Shown: positions 17,824 through 31,557 of the stretch, piece after piece
How the letters are laid out: every line of letters starts with the position of its first letter
Numbering within the stretch: position 1 is the stretch's first letter
Virus record (IMG/VR): IMGVR_UViG_3300010352_001405
Coordinates: 1 to 64,000 of that record
Origin: a virus
Taxonomy: Duplodnaviria; Caudoviricetes
Length of the DNA: 64,000 bases
Direction: 5' to 3' (one strand)
Notes under the pieces: model-generated
Database searches by the model: none
What the model was told of the DNA's origin: nothing
Seen by the model: the letters and a program-made list of their open reading frames with translations, nothing else
Translations under genes and position numbers: made by a program

Positions 17824-18381
17824 ATGAAAGAATTAGATATTTATACAGATTGTTCTGGATCTTTAAATGATTTTGGTATATCTATTGTTGTCATTGACAA
17901 CGATGAAGAAAGTATTCAAAATTACAAAACAAATACAGAGTCTTTAAACCATGAATTTAAAACTTTAGATGAATGTGGTAGTACCACAATCGGCGAATTA
18001 TATGCTATATACAAATCGTTATCTAATCTTATGGTAAAGAAAGAAATAAAAAATCATATTAAAATCTATACCGATAATGAAAGTATTTTTATGTTATTAA
18101 ATGGTGTATCTAAATTAAGAAATTGGAAAAAAAATAAAGACAATGACTCATTATTACACATCTTATATTCAAGATGCATGCGCGTTTTAAATGAACATAA
18201 AAATATCGAAGTTCTTTTTATAAAATCTCATATAGGTATATATGGCAATGAAGTAGCAAATATTTATGCCCAGTCGATTAGAAATGATGGGTTAGAATAT
18301 AAAAAAGGTAAAAAAAAATATAATGTTCCGCCTTTAGATAGAGTTAATAGTTTTATTTCAATTTTTAAAAAATTATCTTAA
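17824..18381 (+). CDS. rnhA: Ribonuclease HI-like protein
   Basis: IYTDCSG, GELYAI, IYTDNES, IKSHIGIYGNEVAN. Confidence 0.8.
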   Translation: MKELDIYTDCSGSLNDFGISIVVIDNDEESIQNYKTNTESLNHEFKTLDECGSTTIGELYAIYKSLSNLMVKKEIKNHIKIYTDNESIFMLLNGVSKLRNWKKNKDNDSLLHILYSRCMRVLNEHKNIEVLFIKSHIGIYGNEVANIYAQSIRNDGLEYKKGKKKYNVPPLDRVNSFISIFKKLS

Positions 18382-19142: not shown

Positions 19143-19219
19143 CGGCGTGTATCACCTCTCTCTGATAAGGAGTTGAAAGTGTAACTGGTCACATGATGGT
19201 TCGACTCCATTCTCGCCGA
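19143..19219 (+). tRNA. Atypical D-arm-less tRNA-like RNA, anticodon GAT (Ile)
   Basis: cggcgtg/ctcgccg acceptor, CTGATAA loop, gatgg-TTCGACT-ccatt T arm, extra hairpin gtg-TAACTGGT-cac in the variable region. Confidence 0.6.
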
Positions 19220-19245: not shown

Positions 19246-19323
19246 GGCAAGGTGCTCGAGTGGTCCAAGGGAACCGCCTGCAAAGCGGCATTATGATCGT
19301 GGGTTCGAATCCCACCCTTGTCT
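19246..19323 (+). tRNA. tRNA-Cys(GCA)
   Basis: Cloverleaf; ccgc-CTGCAAA-gcgg; GTTCGAATC; U discriminator. Confidence 0.9.
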
Positions 19324-19369
19324 CATCAATAAAAATAAATTGTTCTTTGAAATTTTGTAAAAATATTAA

Positions 19370-20260
19370 CTTTGTTTGGAAAGTTTCTTCCGAAAGGAAG
19401 AGAAGAATAATGTGATGCGAGTCACAAAAGAGGATGGGTGTCACACCCACCTACCAATATCCAAATGGAAATTGGATCATCCAAAAAAGCATCGTCTTAT
19501 CGCATCCAAGTGCGATCTTCGCTTACCATGCGGAGATAAGATGGAAGAACGTTACTGGTTCTTTGGAAAGAATATATGGGGTAAGCCCCTACATAGAAAT
19601 GTGTTGGTAAGGAGCCTCATTAATTAGGGATTGACACCCCGACGCCAGTTGGTCAAACGTCCCATTATCCGATTAGATAAGATGTAGTTAGTCTGTTCAA
19701 ACACACCAAAGCAAGAGCTAACTAACAATTCCAAAGATGAAGGGTAATTCCGGAATCTTGAAGAATCACACAGTAGAGCTAGTAACTCGAAACGTATTGT
19801 GTGTGTCGTGTATTTTGTACCTCAAAAGGGTATGAATCACAAGAGTAGGCACCACACGGTGACATAGTAAATTTGCTTAATGGTAGAGCAATTCCATTTT
19901 AAGGAATAGGTTGTTGGTTCAAATCCATCATTTATTAACAGGAAAGACCTACTCAACGATAAACGGAAAGTCGTTTAATTCTCAACATCTTCGGATGAAT
20001 TGAGAGTCTGGAAAGCCCCAAGCTGGAAGGATTTGGTTGAAAAATGCACCTAATGGTTTAGCGACCATGTACTGTGGAAACACAGAGGGTAATTGGAAAG
20101 CCGAATATGTTTATCGGGAAAAGTTGAGTCTCCAACTATAAAAAGGCAACGTCGTCGATAGACCTCTTTTGAAGAGGTGGATAAGTTGGGAACCGCTGGC
20201 GGGAGTCGGTAGGATAATACAACAAAGGTATCGATATCAAGGATGTAATCTCAGTCCTTT
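19370..20260 (+). ncRNA. Large structured RNA, probably GOLLD-like (~890 nt)
   Basis: GC-elevated non-coding stretch with dense hairpins (GAAA/TTCG loops) inside a tRNA cluster; contains an embedded tRNA; ends gtaatctcagtcc; boundaries approximate. Confidence 0.6.
19865..19938 (+). tRNA. tRNA-Lys(TTT)-like element embedded in the large ncRNA
   Basis: tagtaaa/tttatta acceptor, gct-taatggtag-agc D arm, attcc-ATTTTAA-ggaat, GGTTCAAATCC. Confidence 0.65.
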
Positions 20261-20271
20261 TAAAAATAAAT

Positions 20272-20344
20272 GGGCTTTAGGTCAAACGGTTAAGATGTAT
20301 CCCTGTCACGGATCACGGAGCGAGTTCAACTCTCGTAAGGCCCG
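20272..20344 (+). tRNA. tRNA-Asp(GTC)
   Basis: gggcttt/aaggccc acceptor, atcc-CTGTCAC-ggat, gcgag-TTCAACT-ctcgt. Confidence 0.85.
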
Positions 20345-20396
20345 CTGTAGTTCTGGGTAATTTGAAATGTCAACCCCCATAGTTCATTGAAATAAT

Positions 20397-20712
20397 GGCT
20401 CGTTAGCTCAGTAGGTAGAGCAGCAGACTGTAAGTAATTGCAGCTTATATGAGTGATCATATTTGAAAAATCGGATGAACTCAGGGAAACCTTCACTCAT
20501 TAAAAATGGGTATGGTAATCCTGATCCAAGCTCAAAGAAGGTCAAATTATGTATTTGAGAAGGAGCAGAGACTAAAAGGTGAGAAAACCAATCAATAAAC
20601 CTTTACAAGCGTCCGACATCTTATAAAAAGATGATGATATAGTCCACCCTATAATGAAAATTATAGATAATGTGTAATCTGTTGGTCGTAGGTTCGACCC
20701 CTACACGAGCCG
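20397..20712 (+). tRNA. tRNA-Asn(GTT) split by a group I intron (exons 20397-20431 and 20675-20712)
   Basis: Joined exons give gcaga-CTGTTAA-tctgt and a full cloverleaf. Confidence 0.9.
20432..20674 (+). mobile_element. Group I intron (IC3-like) with no ORF
   Basis: 5' exon ends in U pairing with G of the IGS (ctgt/gcag); core elements gaactcagggaaacc, ggtaatcctgatccaag, gcagagact, gatatagtcc; terminal G. Confidence 0.9.
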
Positions 20713-20720
20713 CAAAAAGA

Positions 20721-20814
20721 GGGAAAGTAACGGCACTGGTCTGTAAAACCAACCTGCTCAACAAATCGTCGTAGTGGACTTAGCAGTAAGTGAGTTCGAA
20801 TCTCACCTTTCCCA
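20721..20814 (+). tRNA. Atypical D-arm-less tRNA-like RNA, anticodon GTA (Tyr), long variable arm
   Basis: gggaaag/ctttccc acceptor, tggt-CTGTAAA-acca, ctgct/agcag arm, gtgag-TTCGAAT-ctcac. Confidence 0.65.
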
Positions 20815-21074
20815 CAAAAATTATTAATAAAAAAGAATTATGAATTTTAAAGAAAGTGAATCTGGTAAGATTGTTGTGGATGCTTTAATCGAAAGTAAAA
20901 AAATAACAGAATTAAAAAATGAAAGAATAAAAGAATATGAAATGATTCCCAAATATTGCATTCTTTGCGGGAACATACTAAGTTAGAAAATATTACACAA
21001 AAAGTAATGAAAAAATTTTAATTGAAGTCACATCTTGGTATTCAAAAAATGGTATTCCAGAATTACCATTAGAT

Positions 21075-21653
21075 GTGATAACACAAAAAATTTTAGAATT
21101 GGTTCCAATTGACATGACTGAAGATATGATAGTTCCTAAATTTTCTACATTAACAGAAAAAAGTGAATTGGCTTTCAAATGTTCTTTTTTAGAAACAGTT
21201 TCACCTTATTATGAATATTCTGTGTGGGGGTGTGGATTTAGTAAAATAAAAAGATTAGGAACCATAGATGATTATAAATTAATGATAACAACATTAAATA
21301 AAATTCAGGATATTATTCCGGATTTTAAAGTATATTTCAAAACTTGTATTGAAACAATTGAAGAAATCATAAAAGAATGGGATAATAAATATTTTTGGAG
21401 TTATATATGTTGGACTGATCATGGTTATGCAATGCATGATGTTGATGGTTGGTTTACTAAATTTTATAGAAAATATAATGGAAAACCAAAAAGTGTAACA
21501 TCCTTTTCAAAACATATAACAAAAGTAGATTATTTACATGGTGACATAAATTATACGATGTATATGGGATTGTTAACTTCTTCATATGAAGATGGTTGTT
21601 ATGTTCCAGAATTTACAAAAATTATAACAAAACAAGAGAAAAAAGAAAAGTAA
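21075..21653 (+). CDS. DUF4419-like protein; true 5' end probably near 20840 and disrupted
   Basis: PKFSTLT...YYEY...CGFSKIKRLGTIDDY pattern. Confidence 0.5.
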   Translation: MITQKILELVPIDMTEDMIVPKFSTLTEKSELAFKCSFLETVSPYYEYSVWGCGFSKIKRLGTIDDYKLMITTLNKIQDIIPDFKVYFKTCIETIEEIIKEWDNKYFWSYICWTDHGYAMHDVDGWFTKFYRKYNGKPKSVTSFSKHITKVDYLHGDINYTMYMGLLTSSYEDGCYVPEFTKIITKQEKKEK

Positions 21654-21874
21654 TTGTAAGAGGATATATCGCACTAATCGTTATAAAAACGAAAGTGAGG
21701 AAACTCAGCCAACCGTTGCTTAAAAGTAGGAGATTAAAAATCGTTAATACTACTGAGGGTTAAACTCAAAAAGGTCTTACCATTCCGGTATAGTGGGTGA
21801 GCAACACGAAAAGACAAGGTAGAGGACAATAGACAAATGATATAATAAAACAGAAGGCCGGTTACGCTCAACAA
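21654..21874 (+). ncRNA. rnpB: Minimal RNase P RNA-like ribozyme
   Basis: GAGGAAACTCAGCC...AGACAAATGAT...AAACAGAAGGCCGGTTA conserved regions with covarying P4 (gcc/ggc); P2 tatatc/gatata; P3 cact..agtg; followed by a terminator. Confidence 0.7.
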
Positions 21875-21887
21875 CTACAAAGTTTCA

Positions 21888-21920
21888 AAAAATCTGACCA
21901 TTTTGATCAGGTTTTTTTAT
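21888..21920 (+). terminator. Intrinsic terminator
   Basis: aatctgacca-tttt-gatcaggtt hairpin plus T tract. Confidence 0.6.
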
Positions 21921-21941
21921 TAACAAAAAAAATAAAATATT

Positions 21942-22157
21942 ATGGGAGCTTTAGAAGAAAGAATCAAACAAGAAAATGAAATTTTGAGAAAAATTAAACG
22001 TGAAATCATCAAATGCGCAAAGAAAGGTGAATTACACTATTATTGGGAAATAACAGGGTTAAGTGATTCCACGGTTAAAAGTATAGTAAAGGAATTAGAA
22101 TCTGATGGAAAGTATGTTAATAGTAAAGGAATGAATTTTAAAATAGTGAGATGGTGA
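21942..22157 (+). CDS. Hypothetical protein
   Basis: ORF track. Confidence 0.55.
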   Translation: MGALEERIKQENEILRKIKREIIKCAKKGELHYYWEITGLSDSTVKSIVKELESDGKYVNSKGMNFKIVRW

Positions 22158-22202
22158 AAAATTGACTTTTTTTATTTAATATATATAAAGAAAATAAAAA
22201 AT

Positions 22203-22709
22203 ATGAGAGTTAGAAGCGGTTTTGTGAGTAATAGTAGTAATTCATCTTTCATAATAATATATCTTCCGGATAATTTTGATCCTGAAGTTTATATCGATTA
22301 TATTAATGAAAAAAATAAAAAAAAGACTTTTCCGAAATCAGTAGTAAATGATTTAAGACAATTAGTTAAGAAAGGACATGTAAATGAACAAAACGATTGT
22401 GAAGATTATTATGAATTATATGATGCTGTTTATAAATTGAATATATTTCAAGGAGAAACTAATGAAGAATGTGGGTATATTCAAGCCGTAAAGAAAAAAT
22501 ATTTTGAAAAGTTGAATAAAATTGATGCTGAATATAATACAGATAAGATGAAACAGGCGACATTAGAAATTAGAGAAAAAAGAGAAAAAATGAAATTGAA
22601 ATATAAACATATAGATCCCTATGGTGAAGAAGATTGGGAGGTAGAAGAATTAAAAATAAAAACATTATATGATTTTATGAACGAATCATTTGAAAAAAAA
22701 TCTAAATAA
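22203..22709 (+). CDS. Phage protein of the MKxRxGFVSNSSSSSF family, with DPYGEEDW tag
   Basis: MRVRSGFVSNSSNSSFII; HIDPYGEEDW; CTS-like IKTLYDFMNES near the C-terminus. Confidence 0.65.
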   Translation: MRVRSGFVSNSSNSSFIIIYLPDNFDPEVYIDYINEKNKKKTFPKSVVNDLRQLVKKGHVNEQNDCEDYYELYDAVYKLNIFQGETNEECGYIQAVKKKYFEKLNKIDAEYNTDKMKQATLEIREKREKMKLKYKHIDPYGEEDWEVEELKIKTLYDFMNESFEKKSK

Positions 22710-22765
22710 AACAAAAATTAAAAAAAAATATTAATATATAAATAAAAAAAATAATTAAAAAGAAT

Positions 22766-23242
22766 ATGACAAAATTAGAAAATCTTTTAAATTTCGATGA
22801 TTTCGAAAAAAATTGGAAATCAAAAGAACAAAAATCAACGAAAAGAACTGATGTCGGTGTTGATGTTTTGAACGAAAATTTATATATGAAGGTTATGGAT
22901 CAAGAAGCATCTGGTTGGAAAGGTAATCTTGAAAAATTTATAGCTAGCATTAAAAAGGCTATTGAAGAAAATCAAGTTAAGGATATTAAAATAACTGATA
23001 ATTCAGTGACTTTTAGTATTCGTGGACGTAAACATAAAATAAATAAAGAAAATGGATCCATTACACTGTGGAGAACAAAGGCCACAGCTTTCAGAAAAAC
23101 TACAACTGATGAAGCGGGTAGAGTAAGAGAGGAAAGAAAACGTCAAAAAACCAGAGAACAAGTTGAAGTCAATATTCCTATCAATAAAGCCGATGCTAAT
23201 CAGATTTATAATGATTTGAAAGAAAAAACCGATGACGAATAA
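22766..23242 (+). CDS. Hypothetical protein, CTS-like N-terminus
   Basis: LLNFDDFE...DVLNEN; downstream terminator at ~23306-23338. Confidence 0.6.
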   Translation: MTKLENLLNFDDFEKNWKSKEQKSTKRTDVGVDVLNENLYMKVMDQEASGWKGNLEKFIASIKKAIEENQVKDIKITDNSVTFSIRGRKHKINKENGSITLWRTKATAFRKTTTDEAGRVREERKRQKTREQVEVNIPINKADANQIYNDLKEKTDDE

Positions 23243-23376
23243 TAAGTCATTTATGTACATAATTTAAGATTTGGGTCCTCTCTCTAATGCGTCCATTTCT
23301 TTTTCACCGAATCATGAAATATTGATTCGGTTTTTTATTGTATAAACTTTTATATAATTTAATTATAAATGTGTGA

Positions 23377-24696
23377 ATGGAAATAAATAAAAAAATAACA
23401 AATTCTATTGATCAAATGATATCTGATGCTATGTTGGAGATTCAGTATTATGGTGAATTTTGTCAATTTATTAATTTTAAAAAATCAATTAGAATAAAAA
23501 CATGTGGGGTTACAGTCGACATTCAAGGAATGCGTTTTTATTATAATGATGAATTTGTAAATGGATTGGATCAAGAAGAAATGAATTTTATTATGTTACA
23601 TGAAATATTTCATCTTCTTTGGGATCATCAAACTAGGGAACGTCGATGTGGATATGATCATGATTTGAGTAACATGGTCCAAGATATGATAATAAATCAA
23701 GTTATCAATACAGATATTATTTTAAGAATGGAAGAATCAAATAAAAGAGAACATCGCAATTTATCTTTTGCTAAAATACCTGTTAATAAAGAATCAAATA
23801 AAATTTGGGTTCTTACAATGCCGAAAGAATATAAAGGTAAATTGATCTATGAAGACATGTATGAATGGATATTTGAAGAAAAGAAAAAATATGACGAATG
23901 GAAAAATAATTGTAAATGCGATAAAGATAAAAAATGTATATGTAATAGAGCCGATGGTAAAGAATCATGCGAGTGTGGAAATTGTCCAGTAAGCGATTAT
24001 CTAAGAAAATTATTTGACCAATTAGAATTAGGTATTTTAGATTTTTTAGATAGTCATTTGCCGTCAGATATGCCTGAAGATTTCAGAAAATCAATTATAG
24101 AAAATATTAAAAATAATTTAAGAAATAGAGGATTTGAAACAGCAGATATATTATCAACCATAGGTAAATTAACAAAGTCCAAAAAAGATTATATTAAAAG
24201 TATAAAAATCTGTATTAATGAATTATTTGGAATACATAAAGAAAAATCAATAACTAAAAAAAATAGAAGATCTATTAATGGTGTTAAAGGCAAAAAAAAA
24301 GGAGCCTTCGCATTATCTGTTATTTTAGATGTTTCTGGATCTATGGAATCTTATTTTGAAAAAGCTTTATCATATATTTTTCAAAATGATATAATTGTTC
24401 AACTTTTACAAATAGACACTGAAGTTAAATCGCATACCACTGTCAAAAATAAAAGAGAGATGCAAAAAATAAAAATATGTGGTTTAGGAGGCACAACAAT
24501 TTCACCAGCTATACAATATGTGGTAAATAATAAAAAATTAAAGAAATTAAATCTTTTAATTCTTACAGACGGTGAAACAGATATATTAGATTTTAGGGGG
24601 TTTAATAATAAATGTATGATTTTAAGCACTCATAAAAAATGTGAAACTATAAATATAAGTGGATGCAAAATTAAACAAATTGTGATTAAAGACTAA
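23377..24696 (+). CDS. DUF2201-type HExxH metallopeptidase-VWA protein (MoxR partner)
   Basis: LHEIFH; ILDVSGSM MIDAS; GLGGTTI; ILTDGE. Confidence 0.85.
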   Translation: MEINKKITNSIDQMISDAMLEIQYYGEFCQFINFKKSIRIKTCGVTVDIQGMRFYYNDEFVNGLDQEEMNFIMLHEIFHLLWDHQTRERRCGYDHDLSNMVQDMIINQVINTDIILRMEESNKREHRNLSFAKIPVNKESNKIWVLTMPKEYKGKLIYEDMYEWIFEEKKKYDEWKNNCKCDKDKKCICNRADGKESCECGNCPVSDYLRKLFDQLELGILDFLDSHLPSDMPEDFRKSIIENIKNNLRNRGFETADILSTIGKLTKSKKDYIKSIKICINELFGIHKEKSITKKNRRSINGVKGKKKGAFALSVILDVSGSMESYFEKALSYIFQNDIIVQLLQIDTEVKSHTTVKNKREMQKIKICGLGGTTISPAIQYVVNNKKLKKLNLLILTDGETDILDFRGFNNKCMILSTHKKCETINISGCKIKQIVIKD

Positions 24697-25501
24697 AATC
24701 ATTTTTTTTATTCTTTTTAGAATTAATATATCTTTTCGTAATACATAAATTTGAAATATCGCCTATATCAAATGGATCTAAATTATTCTCATAACCATAA
24801 AAAATACTTATTTTGTGATCTATTGTTGGATAATAACCGTCGCTCGGTTTTAAAAGAAAATTTTTTATTATATGTTCTTTATCATAAAAATCATAACCAT
24901 TCCACATTTCAAAAAGTTCCTTTTGATTTTTTCTAGTGATACTCCAAACTTTATTTTTATATTGATAAAAATCAGTTTGTTCATCGTAGGATCTTATGAA
25001 TCCACTTAATATTTTAGATTTTATTGAACTATCAATAGCTTTTTTATGAGTTTCTGGTAAAATAAAATTTACTTTTACTCCAAACCTTTCATACATTGTT
25101 TTTTCTCTCTTTTTCTTATTTTCTTCTAATTTTGAAGTATTATCGACTCCGTATTTTTCAATAAAATATTGTTTTAATTGTTCATATTTTTCTTTCGATT
25201 GAAGGGGATAATCAGAACCATATTTTATATTATTTGTTTTTTTAACTTTCTCTTTAGAACACAATTGACTACAAGCATAATAACCACCATTTAATATATT
25301 TTCATTATATTTTTGATAACTTATATTTTTAATTTTTCCACAAATATCACATTTTGTTTCAATTCTGTGGGTTGAGCATATTGGCAGATCTTCAATTTTA
25401 GCCAACAATTCTTTTTTATTTTTGACATCATATCCTTTTAATATATAATAATTTATATTTCTATTGGTTATTTTTACCATAACTTCTTTATTTATTATCA
25501 T
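24686..25501 (-). CDS. HNH-type free-standing endonuclease with zinc ribbon and KYGV repeats
   Basis: CDICGK, KYGVDN, PTIDHKIS...NLCITKRYINSKKN. Confidence 0.7.
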   Translation of the reverse strand: MIINKEVMVKITNRNINYYILKGYDVKNKKELLAKIEDLPICSTHRIETKCDICGKIKNISYQKYNENILNGGYYACSQLCSKEKVKKTNNIKYGSDYPLQSKEKYEQLKQYFIEKYGVDNTSKLEENKKKREKTMYERFGVKVNFILPETHKKAIDSSIKSKILSGFIRSYDEQTDFYQYKNKVWSITRKNQKELFEMWNGYDFYDKEHIIKNFLLKPSDGYYPTIDHKISIFYGYENNLDPFDIGDISNLCITKRYINSKKNKKNDFSL

Positions 25502-25640
25502 TTATATTTTTTATTTTTTCAAATTCTTTTTTAATTAAATTTTCAATCCACTCATTTAATTTCAACGTATTTTCTTTTGAATATTTTTTCAATTCTCTAT
25601 GGAGATTTTCATCTATTTTTAATGTTTTTGATTTTTTCAT
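25488..25640 (-). CDS. Small ribbon-helix-helix-like DNA-binding protein
   Basis: Manual translation MKKSKTLKIDENLHRELKKYSKENTLKLNEWIENLIKKEF; overlaps the endonuclease start. Confidence 0.6.
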   Translation of the reverse strand: MKKSKTLKIDENLHRELKKYSKENTLKLNEWIENLIKKEFEKIKNINDNK

Positions 25641-25697
25641 AAACTAAATTCTTTTTTTTATTATATATTAAATAAAAAAAGTGGAAAAAAGTAGAAA

Positions 25698-26123
25698 ATG
25701 GAAATAAATTATTTCGATTTTTTAAGAATGTATCCTGACATAATTATTGAAAATTTTGTTGATAAAATAGATTTCATCAATTATATTGAAATTTTACACA
25801 AAAAATGTATAGGAAAGAAACCTTTGATTAAAATTGATCAAAATAAATTATCAGAAATAGTATATAATGGAAAAACAAATAAAGATAATCTTGATATATT
25901 TAAAAATGAAATAAAAATAAATATATATGACGATACTATAATTATCATATTACATACAGATAAAAGAAGATTGTTCTATTTTAATGACTCAAATGAGAGA
26001 TTCGGTCAATTTTATATATCTGGTAGATTTAATTTATTTTTAGATTCAAAATTTTATTATCTAAATAATAATGAAATAAAAAATATAAAAAGAAGTTTAT
26101 TAATCGACAAATGCTTGATATAG
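25698..26123 (+). CDS. Hypothetical protein, paralog of 48596-48964
   Basis: INYFDFLRMYPD vs INYFKFLEQYPE; C-terminal KRSLLIDK. Confidence 0.6.
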   Translation: MEINYFDFLRMYPDIIIENFVDKIDFINYIEILHKKCIGKKPLIKIDQNKLSEIVYNGKTNKDNLDIFKNEIKINIYDDTIIIILHTDKRRLFYFNDSNERFGQFYISGRFNLFLDSKFYYLNNNEIKNIKRSLLIDKCLI

Positions 26124-26356
26124 ATGGTGATATATTTTATATTAATAATGATAATCTTTTACATAGAGAAGATGGTCCTTCTATTGAGTTCAAATCTGGA
26201 ATTAAATGGTGGTTAAAAAACGGAAGACTTAATAGAGATGACGGACCAGCAATTTTAAATAAAAAATATAAAGAATACTGGGTTAATGGACACAGGGCGA
26301 ATGAAGAAGAAATTAAAAATATAAAAAGAAATTATTGGATTAGAAAAATGATATGA
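26111..26356 (+). CDS. LHREDGPA-repeat protein
   Basis: LHREDGPSIE, LNRDDGPAI. Confidence 0.7.
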   Translation: MLDIDGDIFYINNDNLLHREDGPSIEFKSGIKWWLKNGRLNRDDGPAILNKKYKEYWVNGHRANEEEIKNIKRNYWIRKMI

Positions 26357-27555
26357 TAAGTGAAGAAAAATTAAATAAACTATCGGAAAGAGAAAGACTC
26401 TATATGGAGATATTATTGAGTGGAAATTCTCTTTATTTAAGAGGCAAACCTGGTATGGGGAAATCAGCTATAAGTTTATCTATTACTAAAAAAATCGGAA
26501 TTAAACATTTAGATAAAAGACTCAGTCAAATCGATGAAACAGATATTGGATTATATCCTGTGTTAAATGATGCTTATTCAAAATTAGAAAAAATTGGAAA
26601 ACTAAAAGATCTAGGATATTTGACAATCGAAGAATTCGAAAATATGAAAAAATCACTGCTGAAAAATATAAAAAATGGTCAAGTTGAATTATTACATTTT
26701 GCAATTCCAGACTGGGCTTTTAGTGCCAATGTAGAACCAACTTTAATACATCTAGAAGAACTAAATCGAGCTAATTTACATGTTAGAAACGCAGCACTTC
26801 AACTTCTCAATGAAAGACAGATAGGCGATTTAAAATTGAATGATAATGTTTATTTAATGTCATCTGGTAATCTTGGTGAAACCGATGGAACAGAGGTGGA
26901 TGAAATGGATTTAGCATTGAGCAATAGACTCGTCATACTAGATCACGACCTACCATATGAAGAATGGATTAGTGAATATGCTCAGTATCACGTATGGCAT
27001 GTAATAATAGATTATATTAGAACAAATGCTGGCGAATATTATAAAATGCCAAACGATAAAGAAATTAGATATGCTTCACCAAGAAGTTGGACAAATTTAT
27101 CAAAATTTATAACATATAAATTCGGTAAAAATCCTAAATTGGATGAAGTTATACCACTATTAATGAATCATGGATGCGGTAGAGGATTCATAGGCAATAG
27201 TATAACCAATTTCATAAGATATTGTCAAGATATATCAAACATAAATATAAACGATATTCTTATGAGATGGGAAGACGTAAAAGATGATGTTTCTAAATTT
27301 CATAGATCCAGAATTTCTGAATTGATAGGTAATTTAAAATATATGGATTTAACGAAATTAAAAAAGAATGAGATCGATAATTTATTGAATTTTTTAGATT
27401 CTCTTAGGGGAAATGGAAACGATGATGAATTGACTAGTTATATTATACATTTATTGGATAATACTGATATCGAGAAAAATTATGAAATTCATAAAGTAAT
27501 AATTAATAGATTTAAAGAAAAAGTTAAACAATTAGAAAAATACACGAAAATTTAA
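26353..27555 (+). CDS. MoxR-like AAA+ ATPase with internal SHOCT-like insertion
   Basis: GKPGMGKS, RLSQIDETD, LEELNRA, SSGN, ALSNRL, ASPRSW. Confidence 0.85.
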   Translation: MISEEKLNKLSERERLYMEILLSGNSLYLRGKPGMGKSAISLSITKKIGIKHLDKRLSQIDETDIGLYPVLNDAYSKLEKIGKLKDLGYLTIEEFENMKKSLLKNIKNGQVELLHFAIPDWAFSANVEPTLIHLEELNRANLHVRNAALQLLNERQIGDLKLNDNVYLMSSGNLGETDGTEVDEMDLALSNRLVILDHDLPYEEWISEYAQYHVWHVIIDYIRTNAGEYYKMPNDKEIRYASPRSWTNLSKFITYKFGKNPKLDEVIPLLMNHGCGRGFIGNSITNFIRYCQDISNININDILMRWEDVKDDVSKFHRSRISELIGNLKYMDLTKLKKNEIDNLLNFLDSLRGNGNDDELTSYIIHLLDNTDIEKNYEIHKVIINRFKEKVKQLEKYTKI

Positions 27556-27561
27556 ATATTC

Positions 27562-27957
27562 TTAATTCCAATCCTCTTCACCATAAGGATCTTCTAAAGT
27601 TATTATTTTTTTAGGCTTTAATGAGTCTATTAATTTTTTTTCTGATTCAGTTAAATTGGATAATATTTCTAGTTTATCACAACCATAAATATTAAAAATT
27701 TTTCCTTTTGTGCTTCTTAAAGCCAAGCGTATTGGTTGGTCTTGTTGAAGACTTATTAAAACTGACGCGACTTCAATGTTTTTTAATACTGTTTTATCAC
27801 ATACATGAATATTTATTGACTTTTTATATAATAATCTATCCAATATTCCCTTAGCTTTAACAATATCGTATTTATCATATAACTTATATACGTATATTAC
27901 ATTTTCACCATCTTCAATGTTTTCATTTAATTTATCATAAGTCAAAATATATTTCAT
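27562..27957 (-). CDS. Hypothetical protein with CTS-like N-terminus and C-terminal DPYGEEDW
   Basis: MKYILTYDKLNE...EDPYGEEDWN. Confidence 0.6.
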   Translation of the reverse strand: MKYILTYDKLNENIEDGENVIYVYKLYDKYDIVKAKGILDRLLYKKSINIHVCDKTVLKNIEVASVLISLQQDQPIRLALRSTKGKIFNIYGCDKLEILSNLTESEKKLIDSLKPKKIITLEDPYGEEDWN

Positions 27958-28069
27958 TTATTTATATATTATTTTTTTATTTCATAAACTTTTATTAATT
28001 TTGTATTTATAAAATAGAAAAAAATGACATTTTTATTATAATATATAAAAATACTAAAAAATAAAAATT

Positions 28070-28144
28070 ATGAACTTTCGAATAGAATATATGATACAAG
28101 AACAAATGCAACAGATCAAAAATCTGATTGGGTATGCTGTGTGA
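28070..28144 (+). CDS. Putative attenuator leader peptide 2 (MNFRIEYMIQEQMQQIKNLIGYAV)
   Basis: Same promoter context and CTGATTGG antiterminator strand as leader 1. Confidence 0.7.
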   Translation: MNFRIEYMIQEQMQQIKNLIGYAV

Positions 28145-28167
28145 TAACTATAAGATTGTTATAATAT

Positions 28168-28200
28168 AACCCCAATCAGAAATGACTGGGGTTTTTTGTT
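28168..28200 (+). terminator. Intrinsic terminator of attenuator 2
   Basis: aaccccaatcagaaatgactggggttttttg, identical to the copy at 19002. Confidence 0.85.
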
Positions 28201-28205
28201 TAAAT

Positions 28206-28268
28206 GCTCCCATCGTCTAAAGGTAGGACAAAAGCTTTTCATACTTTAAATGCGATTCGCTGGGAGTA
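28206..28268 (+). pseudogene. tRNA-Glu(TTC) with shortened T arm
   Basis: gctccca/tgggagt acceptor, Glu-type D arm, TTTTCAT loop; T arm reduced to gcg-att-cgc. Confidence 0.6.
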
Positions 28269-28407
28269 CAAAAATTAAAAAAAAATGAAAAAAATAGAAA
28301 GAAAAGATTTCTGATTATCATAAGTAAAGAAAAATTGTTCATTGACATATTGAAATAAAATTTTTGGGGAAAGTGGGTCGATGTAGTCGAATCCAAACTC
28401 AAAAAAT

Positions 28408-28484
28408 GCCGATGTGGGCGGAGTTGGCTATCGCATGTGAATCATAATCACAACACGTCGCTGGTTCGAATCCAGCCATCGGTA
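28408..28484 (+). tRNA. tRNA-Met/Ile2(CAT)
   Basis: tgtga-ATCATAA-tcaca; gctgg-TTCGAAT-ccagc. Confidence 0.85.
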
Positions 28485-28487
28485 CAT

Positions 28488-28562
28488 TGCTCCTTAGCGC
28501 AACTTGGTTAGAGCTAGTGGTTTTGAGCCACAGGGTTGGAGGTTCGAGTCCTTCAGGAGCAG
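28488..28562 (+). tRNA. tRNA-Gln(TTG)
   Basis: tgctcct/aggagca acceptor; gtgg-TTTTGAG-ccac. Confidence 0.85.
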
Positions 28563-28565
28563 CAC

Positions 28566-28636
28566 AGTTTCTTGATGTAACGGAAGCATATAATTTTCTG
28601 AAAATTATTGTCTTGGTTCAAATCCAAGAGAAACTA
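28566..28636 (+). tRNA. tRNA-Gln(CTG)
   Basis: agtttct/agaaact acceptor; taatt-TTCTGAA-aatta. Confidence 0.8.
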
Positions 28637-28746
28637 CTAAATAATATTAAAAAATAATTGACCTTTTATTCATTTCGATCTACGAATTTAAAACTTTTTA
28701 CACTGTATAATATATAACATTAAAAATTTTTGGAAACATAGTAATT

Positions 28747-29277
28747 ATGAAAAAATTATTTATTATTTTATTTATCTTAACTTCTTTTATATTAAACGCT
28801 CAAACAAAAGGAACGTTCATTGATATACGTGATAATAAAACATACAAAACTATCAAAATAGGTGATCAAATTTGGATGAATGAAGATCTAAAATATAATG
28901 ATACTACATTATATAACTATCAAGTGATTATGAACGGAACAAAACCAGATACAAATCAAATCAAAGGGATTTGTCCATATGGTTGGCATGTACCAAATGT
29001 AAGTGAATGGTATAAATTATTAATAACTGTTGGAAGACAAAATGCTTCTGAAAAATTAAGAGATTATAATGGATTTCACGCATCTATGAATGGTAGATAT
29101 AATTTTGATAAAAAATTGTTAGAAAATAAAGGAAGTCATTCATATTACTGGACATCAACTGAAAGAGATCAAAGTACAGCTTGGGTATATTTTATATATG
29201 AAATGGCACCATCTGTAAATAAAATAGATGGTGATAAAAATTTCGGATATTCTTTAAGATGTATAAAAAATTTTTAA
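28747..29277 (+). CDS. Secreted FISUMP (Fibrobacter succinogenes major paralogous) domain protein
   Basis: Signal peptide; DIRDNKTYKTIKIGDQIWM, GICPYGWHVP, YYWTST, GYSLRCIK. Confidence 0.85.
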   Translation: MKKLFIILFILTSFILNAQTKGTFIDIRDNKTYKTIKIGDQIWMNEDLKYNDTTLYNYQVIMNGTKPDTNQIKGICPYGWHVPNVSEWYKLLITVGRQNASEKLRDYNGFHASMNGRYNFDKKLLENKGSHSYYWTSTERDQSTAWVYFIYEMAPSVNKIDGDKNFGYSLRCIKNF

Positions 29278-29354
29278 AAATAATTTTTTAAATCAAAAAA
29301 TAAATTCTATATTTGTATTATAAATATGGTTCATTGAAATTTTGAAAAATATAT

Positions 29355-29440
29355 AGCGGGATAGTCTAATGGTAGGATCCTAGGCTCATAATCTAGAGAA
29401 TGGTAAAGTCCAGTTGGAGGTTCGATTCCTTCTCCCGCAA
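29355..29440 (+). tRNA. Initiator-like tRNA-Met(CAT) with extended variable arm
   Basis: 1:72 mismatch, gcggga/tcccgc acceptor, ctagg-CTCATAA-tctag, 19-nt variable region. Confidence 0.75.
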
Positions 29441-29444
29441 CTAA

Positions 29445-29590
29445 AAGGTGTTTTTTGTTTTAATGTAGCTAATGCAAAGATATCAGGGCAAGACCTGATG
29501 CGAGGGTATGATGTCGAAGTCATATCAAACAAAAATCTAGAGGGTGTAGCAAATCCCTTACATTAAAACAAAGAAAGTCTAGACCACCTT
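29445..29590 (+). ncRNA. Unassigned structured RNA
   Basis: 14-bp closing stem tttgttttaatgta/tacattaaaacaaa enclosing three hairpins. Confidence 0.6.
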
Positions 29591-29599
29591 AAAATATAC

Positions 29600-29672
29600 G
29601 GTCTGGTATGTCAATGGTTAGACGGCAATTCTTATAAAATTGAGGTTGGTGGTTCAAGTCCACCCCAGACTA
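29600..29672 (+). tRNA. tRNA-Ile(TAT)
   Basis: ggtctgg/ccagact acceptor; caatt-CTTATAA-aattg; ggtgg-TTCAAGT-ccacc. Confidence 0.9.
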
Positions 29673-29743
29673 CGATATGATAAAAGTTCAAGTTGTAAAA
29701 AACGACTTTTTTATTTTAATATATAAAATAAAAAAGGAACATT

Positions 29744-30508
29744 ATGGAAAAAAATGAAATAAAAAATAAAATTTTAAATTCAAAGTCTAGAACTGAAGCT
29801 AGTAAAAAAATATTCAATTATTCAAATAGAACAACCTTATTAAAAATAGATTATTATTTAAAAGAATTTGATTTAGTAGGTTTTTTCAAAAAGAAAAAAA
29901 TTGAAAAAAAATGTTTAAATTGCGGAATCATAATAAATAGAAGAAATAAGTTTTGTTGTCAATCTTGTTCGGCTATTTATAATAATAAAAATAGACAATT
30001 GACAGAAGATACTAAAAATAAAATAAGTAAATCTTTAAAGGGTAGAAATAGAGTAGATGTAAAAAGTAAAGGAAAGACTATTATTATAAATTGTAAAAAT
30101 TGTAACAATGAATTTTTATTTTTAAAATATAAATTAAAAGAAGGAAAATCTAATTTTTGTAGTAAAAGTTGTTACCATGAATATAGAACTAAAAATAAAA
30201 AAGATATAAAACATTTACAAAAATTAAATAGAATAAAATATAATTATGGATTAAACGAAGATGAATATATAAAATTGTTTGAAAATCAAAATTATATTTG
30301 TCCTATTTGTAATATTAATCTAAATGATGTGAAAGCTTGTGTTGATCACGAACACAACACTGGTAAAATAAGGGGAATTTTATGTGATAAATGTAATAAG
30401 GGTATTGGTCATTTTGAAGATAATATAAAACTATTCGAAAATGCTATAATTTATTTAAAGACTTTTTATGAAAAAGAAAATATTAAAAATATAAATATGA
30501 TTCAGTAA
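29744..30508 (+). CDS. Endonuclease VII-like (His-Me) homing endonuclease within the tRNA cluster
   Basis: QNYICPIC...VDHEHNTGKIRGILCDKCNKGIGHF; N-terminal CxxC..FCS fingers and NUMOD3-like motif. Confidence 0.85.
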   Translation: MEKNEIKNKILNSKSRTEASKKIFNYSNRTTLLKIDYYLKEFDLVGFFKKKKIEKKCLNCGIIINRRNKFCCQSCSAIYNNKNRQLTEDTKNKISKSLKGRNRVDVKSKGKTIIINCKNCNNEFLFLKYKLKEGKSNFCSKSCYHEYRTKNKKDIKHLQKLNRIKYNYGLNEDEYIKLFENQNYICPICNINLNDVKACVDHEHNTGKIRGILCDKCNKGIGHFEDNIKLFENAIIYLKTFYEKENIKNINMIQ

Positions 30509-30628
30509 ACCAGCTTCTCTATTCGCAGGCCTATGGCACAGGACACAGAATATGCGCCCGTAACGTAAGATAACGAGAGAACAATTAAGGAGGGAATGGC
30601 GAGTCTCCCTATCTAACTGGAGCTGTTT
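30508..30628 (+). ncRNA. Unassigned structured RNA
   Basis: cagcttc/ggagctg closing stem with internal hairpins; GC-rich island. Confidence 0.5.
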
Positions 30629-30674
30629 CACAATTAATCATAGAAATTACACGAACTAACAAATAAAAAAAATA

Positions 30675-31040
30675 ATGGAAAATTTTTTATCTATCCAGAG
30701 TCTCATTTTGATTATAATTGTGGTTGTTATACTATTTTTTTTATTTAGAGAAGTAAACTGTTGGTATTGGAAAATCAATAAAAGAATCAAATTACAGGAA
30801 GATATTATTTTACATCTAAAAATCATTTCTAATTCTATAAATGATCAAAATGAAAACACTAAAAATGAAATTTCTAAAAACGATATTAATTTGACAGATG
30901 ATGAAAAAAGAATTATAGATTCTTTTGAAATAAAAGAAGGTGAAAAAATAATCATACATAAAAGATTGAGAAACATAATAAAAGTATCAGAAAAAGATCA
31001 AAGACGTCTTCAAATGGAAGATTGGATAGTAGTTGGGTAA
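30675..31040 (+). CDS. Hypothetical membrane protein
   Basis: N-terminal TM, FREVNCWYWKIN. Confidence 0.6.
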   Translation: MENFLSIQSLILIIIVVVILFFLFREVNCWYWKINKRIKLQEDIILHLKIISNSINDQNENTKNEISKNDINLTDDEKRIIDSFEIKEGEKIIIHKRLRNIIKVSEKDQRRLQMEDWIVVG

Positions 31041-31071
31041 TTAAATTTGGAAACTATTAAAAAAAACATAC

Positions 31072-31293
31072 ATGAAAACACTGAAAAAAGGAGAAGATTT
31101 TAAAAGAGTTAAGGATTTTTCTTATGAAGATCTTAATAAAATGAATTCCCTTCTTAAAGAAGGATGGAATTATTGTTCAAAACAAGAATATAAAGAAACT
31201 TTCAAAGGCGAAAAAACAGTAACGGAAGTAAAATCTGAAGAAAAAAAGAAAGATAAAGAAAACAAAAAGAAAGAATCTAAAAAGAAGAAATAA
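31072..31293 (+). CDS. Hypothetical basic protein
   Basis: GWNYCSKQEYK. Confidence 0.55.
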   Translation: MKTLKKGEDFKRVKDFSYEDLNKMNSLLKEGWNYCSKQEYKETFKGEKTVTEVKSEEKKKDKENKKKESKKKK

Positions 31294-31351
31294 TTGGCTG
31301 AAAATTAAAATAAACAAAGAATAAAATAAAATATATATAGAAAAAGAAAAT

Positions 31352-31426
31352 GCTCTCGTCGTCTAATCGGTTAGGACATCGCCTTTTCACGGCGAAGATT
31401 TGCGAGTTCGAGTCTCGTCGAGAGTA
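31352..31426 (+). tRNA. tRNA-Glu(TTC)
   Basis: tcgcc-TTTTCAC-ggcga; full cloverleaf. Confidence 0.9.
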
Positions 31427-31480
31427 CAAAAAAGATTTAGATTATAATCCTTCTAATAATGTAGATTTTAAAAGAATTGA

Positions 31481-31557
31481 ACTCCCGTCGTCTAGTGATC
31501 CAGGACGTCAGATTCTCATTCTGAAGATCGTGGGTTTAAATCCCATCGGGAGTACCA
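31481..31557 (+). tRNA. tRNA-Glu(CTC) with encoded CCA
   Basis: tcaga-TTCTCAT-tctga; T loop TTTAAAT is atypical. Confidence 0.85.

Follow-up and report, generated by a model that had tools for sequence, protein, structure and literature searches.

A putative minimal RNase P RNA, reduced to its catalytic domain, belongs to a covarying RNA family in giant phages

The window analysed here is a stretch of 64 kb of phage DNA, the first part of a 163-kb IMG/VR virus record (IMGVR_UViG_3300010352_001405) whose completeness was rated by CheckV at 23%, which points to a genome of several hundred kilobases. Its DNA resembles two genomes deposited as 'uncultured phage', LR756501 (735 kb) and LR756511 (595 kb), and structured RNAs are abundant in it, with ten canonical tRNA genes, a GOLLD RNA that contains an internal tRNA-Lys and a group I intron. 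In a 290-nucleotide (nt) gap between two open reading frames (ORFs) of the + strand, 21075-21653 and 21942-22157, lies the subject of this report, a non-coding gene of 229 nt at 21650-21878 (+ strand), whose ends were set by the P1 helix. Ribonuclease P (RNase P) is the ribozyme that trims new tRNAs, and its RNA is considered a ribozyme of cells and organelles. Sequence comparisons support the identity of the 229-nt RNA as an RNase P RNA of about half the usual size, in which the entire catalytic core is retained. An earlier reading made from the letters of the window (the sequence-only reading) had placed such a gene at 21654-21874; the catalytic signatures in a short RNA were found as described, whereas the true span is slightly wider.

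The architecture of this mini RNase P RNA comprises the helices P1-P5 and P15-P17 with a GGU loop, the P6 pseudoknot and the conserved regions (CR) CR-I, CR-IV and CR-V. The specificity domain (S-domain), described earlier as much reduced, is indeed represented by only one hairpin of 30 nt (21725-21754), and P18 is absent. The parts of the gene, with the base pairs (bp) that form them, are the following.

21650-21662, + strand: 5' strand of P1; the outer part, 21650-21657, pairs with 21871-21878 (one A.C) and the inner part, 21660-21662, with 21867-21869.
21665-21670, + strand: 5' strand of P2, pairing with 21839-21844; 6 bp, 4 of them with double changes, and 95.6-100% of the alignment cells paired.
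21669-21672, + strand: conserved UCGC after P2; E. coli carries the same GUCGC junction.
21672-21697, + strand: P3 hairpin; its base (21672-21674/21695-21697) covaries, and its apical stem (21679-21682/21688-21691) was read from the sequence.
21697-21710, + strand: CR-I and 5' strand of P4; 21702-21704 and 21706-21710 pair with 21856-21863, leaving U21705 bulged.
21711-21714, + strand: 5' strand of P5, pairing with 21758-21761; double changes in 4 of 4 bp.
21716-21720, + strand: 5' strand of the P6 pseudoknot, pairing with 21800-21804 in the P17 loop, in the P6 topology of bacterial type A.
21725-21754, + strand: stub hairpin replacing the S-domain (P7-P14); the outer helix 21725-21729/21750-21754 covaries.
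21763-21764, + strand: J5/15 adenines, equivalents of E. coli A248 and A249, invariant or nearly so.
21765-21767, + strand: 5' strand of P15, pairing with 21822-21824; double changes in 3 of 3 bp.
21774-21815, + strand: P16 (21774-21778/21811-21815) enclosing P17 (21793-21795/21805-21807), with covariation.
21818-21821, + strand: GGUA of L15, equivalent of E. coli G292, G293, U294 and A295, nearly invariant in 30 sequences.
21830-21844, + strand: CR-IV (UAGAnAAAUGA, 21830-21840) running into the 3' strand of P2; its columns are invariant, and there is no P18 between P15 and CR-IV.
21850-21864, + strand: CR-V, consisting of ACAGAA, the 3' strand of P4 and UA; neither ACAGAA nor the final UA varies among the aligned sequences.
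21894-21918, + strand: candidate terminator, made up of a hairpin and seven consecutive T behind it, at a distance of 16 nt from P1; the hairpin was listed for the - strand, and the T run of the + strand was read from the sequence.

The inner three base pairs of P1 covary, and the outer helix, which was read by eye, is present as 9-11 bp in the relatives L043, L287 and L301. Double changes were seen in 7 of the 8 pairs of P4, whose bulged U is invariant in 30/30 sequences and corresponds, by position mapping to E. coli rnpB, to U69 (U21705 in the window). In P6, all 5 bp show double changes and 91.8% of the cells are paired in the 30-sequence set. The GGUA of L15 has the same position relative to the 3' strand of P15 as in E. 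coli; the L15 GGU region of RNase P RNA is the site that binds the 3'-CCA of tRNA. Within the stub hairpin, the alignment positions A83, A101 and C102 (numbered on the first row) are invariant or nearly so. Its internal loop (within 21730-21749) is asymmetric and conserved and contains an A and a C that do not vary. The 5' side of the loop reads N-A, and its 3' side, G-Y-U-N-N-N-A, is similar to a T-loop (U-N-N-N-A).

Homologs of the RNA were found through a stretch of LR756511 that is 79.5% identical to its 3' part. With a pattern taken from the shared 3' half, ten true homologs were retrieved from IMG/VR, and the same pattern gave more than 20 further distinct homologs in metagenome contigs as well as two in binned contigs of metagenome-assembled genomes (MAGs). 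The invariance of GGTAG, TAGA-N-AAATGA and ACAGAA is not independent evidence, because these motifs are specified by the retrieval pattern and their conservation is partly built into it; the evidence independent of the pattern consists of helix covariation, the bulged uridine of P4, the adenines of J5/15 and the P6 pairing. A 15-mer from the P17 loop proved unspecific as a scan pattern (at least 117 loci, one new real homolog), and nothing real was obtained by blastn of the loci L123 and L129 against deposited phages.

Distinct sequences were aligned with MAFFT in sets of 12 and of 30, neither alignment being fitted to a structure. From the smaller one, RNAalifold recovered P1, P3, the long-range P4, P5, the stub hairpin, P15, P16 and P17, with compensatory changes in 28 of its 33 pairs. 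The two pseudoknots, P2 and P6, were added by hand before the pairs were counted. In the sets of 12 and 30 sequences, respectively, 95.7% and 93.1% of the cells were paired, compared to about 34-44% and 32-44% when the partners were slid by 1-3 columns, and double changes were present in 36 and 37 of the 43 pairs. Compensated cells numbered 142 in the smaller set and 337 in the larger one, the latter against 97 ± 8 in shuffles, and none of 500 shuffles matched the observed values in either alignment. Each helix is individually supported by covariation. The bulged U of P4, the equivalents of A248 and A249, the GGU of L15 and the core of CR-IV were invariant or nearly so in the 30 sequences. When the window RNA was folded by itself, no signal emerged (z = 0.39), the fold being apparent only by comparison.

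When the window was scanned with Rfam at gathering thresholds, no RNase P family was reported. The sole match in a permissive local scan was to RNaseP_arch, spanning the whole model with 16.9 bits against a threshold of 84. RF00010 (bacterial class A) had no match at E<=10 in the entire 163-kb record, where its gathering threshold of 100 bits was not reached, and none was reported at E<=10 for RF02357 (type T) in the window. The match to an RNase P model that the sequence-only reading had made its test was thus missing for the window itself and came from its relatives, all in full length: L122 and L124 matched RF00010 (72.1 bits, E=4.9e-20, and 50.5 bits, E=1.1e-12), L130 matched RF00011, bacterial class B (46.8 bits, E=1e-9), and L127 matched RF02357, the truncated type T (37.1 bits, E=1.8e-4). 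From 16 members, leaving out the window and its three nearest relatives, a covariance model (R1) was then built for the core from CR-I through CR-V. Its single match in the 64-kb window, at 21695-21865, reached 125.3 bits (E=1e-22) over model positions 1-160 of 160, so that the proposal of a phage-encoded minimal RNase P RNA is borne out by this score and by covariation among 30 homologs. Scores in phage records were 92-156 bits; the matches on five cellular genomes were weak (<=39 bits, with 150 of the more than 800 candidates per genome scored) and were not used as a homology test. On sequence grounds, the homology to RNase P RNA is established through the relatives and not by a direct Rfam match of the window.

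The order of elements, from P1 through the 3' strand of P1, is identical to that of E. coli rnpB except for the S-domain and P18. With bacterial type A RNAs (RF00010) the phage RNA shares the UCGC junction, P4 with its bulged uridine, the P1-P2-P3 frame with CR-IV placed before the 3' strand of P2, the assembly of P15-P17, L15 GGUA and the P6 pseudoknot, an A-rich J15/16, and CR-V. It differs from them in the loss of the S-domain (P7-P14, CR-II and CR-III), which leaves only the 30-nt hairpin between P6 and the 3' strand of P5, in a C-G as the third pair of P4, in its score below the Rfam threshold and in being encoded by a phage. The 3' pattern that retrieved the family also matches more than 100 cellular genome contigs carrying type A rnpB genes of full length in which P18 is naturally absent, from Bacteroidales, Marinitoga, Leptospira and others, and their junction GGUAG-(P15 3')-UAGAnAAAUGA is identical to that of the phage RNA. 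The distance from CR-I to CR-V is 153 nt in the window (125-225 nt in the mini class) compared to 250-300 nt in the cellular genes. Because the elements match and this distance is short, the phage RNA is read as a type A RNA of the P18-less kind from which the S-domain has been lost.

One copy, detected with R1, is present in each of seven large phage records: LR756511 (595 kb, 150 bits), LR756501 (735 kb, 92.6 bits), LR745206 (635 kb, 96 bits), LR756502 (642 kb, 142.6 bits) and the IMG/VR records G001, G002 and G003. The other carrier contigs are fragments of 29-78 kb that are only 4-20% complete, and they must therefore come from very large genomes; one carrier of 82 kb is 90% complete. The carriers are tRNA-rich phage contigs, and most of the loci are ordinary tRNA arrays, one of them also with a transfer-messenger RNA (tmRNA). 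In the paper in which the giant genomes were published, RNase P is unmentioned, and Bacteroidetes hosts were predicted for phages of more than 634 kb (PMC7162821). Rfam-based annotation misses the mini RNA, which therefore carries no annotation even in the largest phage genomes that have been published.

Some copies depart from the common form. That of LR745206 (L386, 502104-502267) has a deviant core, with GAGAAA for GAGGAA, AGCAAA for ACAGAA and no GGUAG, in a genome that still encodes the RNase P protein RnpA. In the copy of LR756501 (L376, 181323-181508) and in L283:4160-4447, one or two extra hairpins stand between the 3' strand of P15 and CR-IV, at the position of P18, and GGUUGG is read in place of GGUAG. 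Short rnpB-like genes were also seen on contigs of Gammaproteobacteria MAGs (L168:2036-2292, L226:836-1103 and L179:2889-3175; 169-199 nt from CR-I to CR-V); these look like reduced cellular RNase P RNAs with parts of the S-domain, distinct from the phage mini family.

A non-canonical P4 with compensatory changes had been claimed in the sequence-only reading, and the strings that it quoted do lie at 21697-21710 and 21850-21864. The third pair, C21704-G21861 in the window and G68-C358 in E. coli, is a true compensatory swap. Across the mini family (n=30), this pair is C-G in 15 members, G-C in 6, U.G in 6 and U-A in 3, whereas the canonical G is kept in 87 of 91 cellular rnpB genes with the same 3' motif; therefore, the odd P4 is a trait of the family. 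Not everything in the helix is compensated, since A21707.C21859 is a mismatch specific to the window, A-U in L043, L287 and L301. A second A.C mismatch lies in the outer P1, where the closest relatives pair. In both cases a T has given way to a C on the 3' strand, and the mismatches may be tolerated or may weaken the copy of the window. Such mismatches, and the AGCAAA and missing GGUAG of the LR745206 copy, are in keeping with a host rnpB that was captured, is now decaying and has no present function. For the family this is strongly disfavoured and altogether highly improbable, given the excess of compensated cells over the shuffles in the 30 sequences, the invariance of the core nucleotides, the single copy kept in each of the seven large records and the same deletion boundaries in members that are only 57-67% identical; the family-wide covariation essentially excludes a pseudogene.

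The RNA and a gene for RnpA co-occur in three phage genomes, G002, LR745206 and LR756502. The protein of G002 (P0001, L133:1501-1791) has 97 amino acids (aa), matches Pfam PF00825 with 50.7 bits, contains the RNR motif and is encoded at a distance of 19 kb from the RNA. Neither rpmH nor yidC lies next to its gene, which is flanked by several unknown ORFs and by an HD phosphohydrolase matching a phage family. No match to P0001 was found in PHROGs, and a search for related loci returned only its own contig. P0001 falls in a clade of short RnpA proteins (92-102 aa), some of them on contigs of 434 kb and 634 kb, and the nearest named cellular relatives are RnpA proteins of Bacteroidota. The proteins of LR745206 (L383:1447-1794) and LR756502 (L384:1420-1788) also have the RNR motif and score 90.7 and 102 bits against the phage RnpA profile A4. 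All three are shorter than cellular RnpA, lie outside the rpmH-rnpA-yidC context and are absent from PHROGs. As these carriers encode their own RnpA, the partner of such an RNA may be phage-encoded. The window RNA is 57-67% identical to the copies of RnpA-positive and RnpA-negative giant phages alike, so the presence of RnpA in its phage is not predictable from the RNA; the partner may be the RnpA of the host, which the sequence-only reading had put forward, or one encoded in the unsequenced part of the phage genome. Function without any protein is possible, though unlikely in vivo.

The catalytic domain (C-domain) of the RNase P RNA of Bacillus subtilis was reportedly found active with its protein by Loria and Pan in 2001. 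The C-domain of E. coli alone cleaves, with an efficiency that depends on a P6-like pairing both with and without the protein C5, and P18 adds nothing to it once the S-domain is gone (PMC5839562). The phage RNA is like the engineered Eco CP RPR of that work (Mao et al. 2018, PMC5839562) in being S-domain-less, and it keeps a covarying P6 and lacks P18; unlike the construct, which was closed artificially, it is natural and maintained by evolution and has a conserved stub hairpin that contains an internal loop. A natural reduced form is found in Thermoproteaceae, whose type T RNase P RNA of ~200 nt retains little of the S-domain and escapes detection with standard models (PMC3579882). The relative L127 scores best against this family (RF02357). 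Type T is nevertheless cellular and works with archaeal proteins, in contrast to the phage RNA with its L15 GGU, its P15-P17 and P6 elements and a co-occurring RnpA of bacterial type.

Among the possible substrates in the window are the canonical tRNA genes (19246-31557) and two tRNA-like genes, 20721-20814 (33.4 bits with the Infernal tRNA model, anticodon GUA) and 19143-19219 (22.3 bits, anticodon GAU). In both of the latter, the D-arm of 15 positions is replaced by 4-5 nt and the variable region has 18-34 nt. Neither was called by ARAGORN; the atypical tRNAs of the sequence-only reading are nonetheless real, in that Infernal aligns the two to the tRNA model without a D-arm. The GOLLD RNA (19799-20257) scores 155.2 bits against a threshold of 150, with a tRNA-Lys(UUU) embedded at 19865-19939, and the group I intron (20421-20666; 94.5 bits in Rfam) lies between a tRNA-Asp and a D-arm-less tRNA-like gene.

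The S-domain of RNase P RNA reads the T-loop/D-loop elbow of the tRNA. An enzyme without it should be indifferent to an altered elbow, so that the link to the D-arm-less tRNAs, raised in the sequence-only reading, is suggestive. It is doubtful, though conceivable, that the loss of the S-domain was adaptive, with a private RNase P, made of the mini RNA and an RnpA of host or phage, accepting substrates that the cellular enzyme handles poorly, such as the D-arm-less tRNA-like RNAs and the GOLLD-embedded tRNA. A separate proposal would keep the RNA as an active ribozyme derived from RNase P and would make these RNAs, a tmRNA or phage mRNAs its main substrates in place of ordinary pre-tRNAs. The missing elbow-reading domain, the presence of two D-arm-less genes and of GOLLD with its tRNA-Lys in the same window, and the tmRNA at one carrier locus all point that way; however, most carriers lie in ordinary tRNA arrays, and constructs consisting of the C-domain only still cleave tRNA-like substrates (PMC5839562), so we consider this proposal unlikely.

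The window RNA is read as an active RNase P RNA because the necessary elements and the nucleotides for catalysis and substrate contact are retained. With a probability of roughly 70%, it is the RNA subunit of a phage RNase P, a type A RNA stripped to its catalytic domain, which would mature tRNA 5' ends together with RnpA. Its function would most likely be the 5' maturation of the phage tRNAs as an RNA-protein enzyme. We infer the following course for its transcription, protein assembly, cleavage and choice of substrates. The RNA would probably be transcribed with the surrounding genes of the + strand, ending near the hairpin and T run at 21894-21918, and would fold into P1-P5, P15-P17 and the P6 pseudoknot. 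Assembled with the RnpA of the host, or with a phage copy from the three quarters of the genome that are not sequenced, it would cleave the 5' leaders off the many tRNA precursors of the phage. Catalysis would proceed at the metal site of P4, around the invariant bulged U21705, and the adenines of J5/15. Because the elbow-reading S-domain is missing, binding would rest on the acceptor stem, on the pairing of the tRNA 3' end with the GGU of L15 and on the leader, held by the protein.

Several observations weigh against this reading, among them the two A.C mismatches described above. No member of the family reaches its Rfam threshold. Only tRNA-Glu (31481-31557) encodes its 3'-CCA, and the other 9 of the ten canonical tRNA genes do not, so the contact with L15 GGU presupposes prior addition of CCA. 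A scan for sigma-70-type promoters near the gene, which does not cover the promoters of Bacteroidota, gave nothing above chance. No RnpA was found in the complete genomes LR756501 and LR756511, nor with PF00825, P0001 or profile A4 in the 163-kb record, which covers only ~23% of its genome. Resemblance alone is moreover no proof of activity, because the RNase P-like RNA of camelpox virus was inactive in vitro (PMC3001073). The camelpox RNA is also virus-encoded and resembles RNase P RNA, but it belongs to a eukaryotic virus and is not known to have a conserved family or covariation support (PMC3001073), whereas the phage mini family is broad, covaries and in some genomes is accompanied by genes for RnpA.

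The camelpox RNA was at one time suggested to act as a decoy (PMC3001073), and the phage RNA might likewise be a sponge that retains the protein-binding surface of RNase P RNA, titrates host RnpA and stops the maturation of host tRNAs without being itself catalytic. The genomes in which RnpA was not found and the mismatched P4 of the window copy would suit such a role. It is nonetheless very unlikely, since the bulged U of P4, the J5/15 adenines, the GGU of L15 and P6 are conserved in 30 divergent members and are needed for catalysis and substrate binding but not obviously for protein binding, a sponge would hardly account for the three carriers that encode an RnpA of their own, and the phage's own tRNAs would suffer too.

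Around the gene, the ORF just upstream, 21075-21653, has a GTG start and a stop codon that overlaps the 5' strand of P1. Its match to the DUF4419 profile is confined to positions 77-222 of 303, and the ORF may represent a truncated or a split gene. Two small ORFs overlapping the RNA, 21596-21763 (+ strand) and 21734-21874 (- strand), were rejected as an explanation because the covariation pattern is that of a paired RNA. Upstream of the RNA gene cluster lies an ORF of the RNase H family (17824-18381; PF00075, 34.8 bits).

A full-text search of the literature, incomplete in coverage, found no phage-encoded RNase P RNA, although a publication may exist. The only viral precedent found was the RNase P-like RNA of camelpox virus (PMC3001073), and the only natural S-domain-less form was the archaeal type T RNA (PMC3579882).

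A conserved virus-encoded RNase P RNA would add a ribozyme to the translation-related genes already known from giant phages. The mini family also offers a natural experiment on minimal RNase P, in which evolution would have reached the design of the deletion studies, a catalytic domain with P6 from which P18 and the S-domain are dispensable, and in which a P4 base pair almost fixed in cells has been relaxed. Together with the phage RnpA, it would make substrate recognition without an S-domain and the processing of unusual tRNA-like RNAs by phages testable, and might provide a ribozyme of 230 nt as a compact tool. If the phages do have a private RNase P, ribozyme and non-canonical substrates would have co-evolved, and the supply of phage tRNAs would be independent of the host enzyme.
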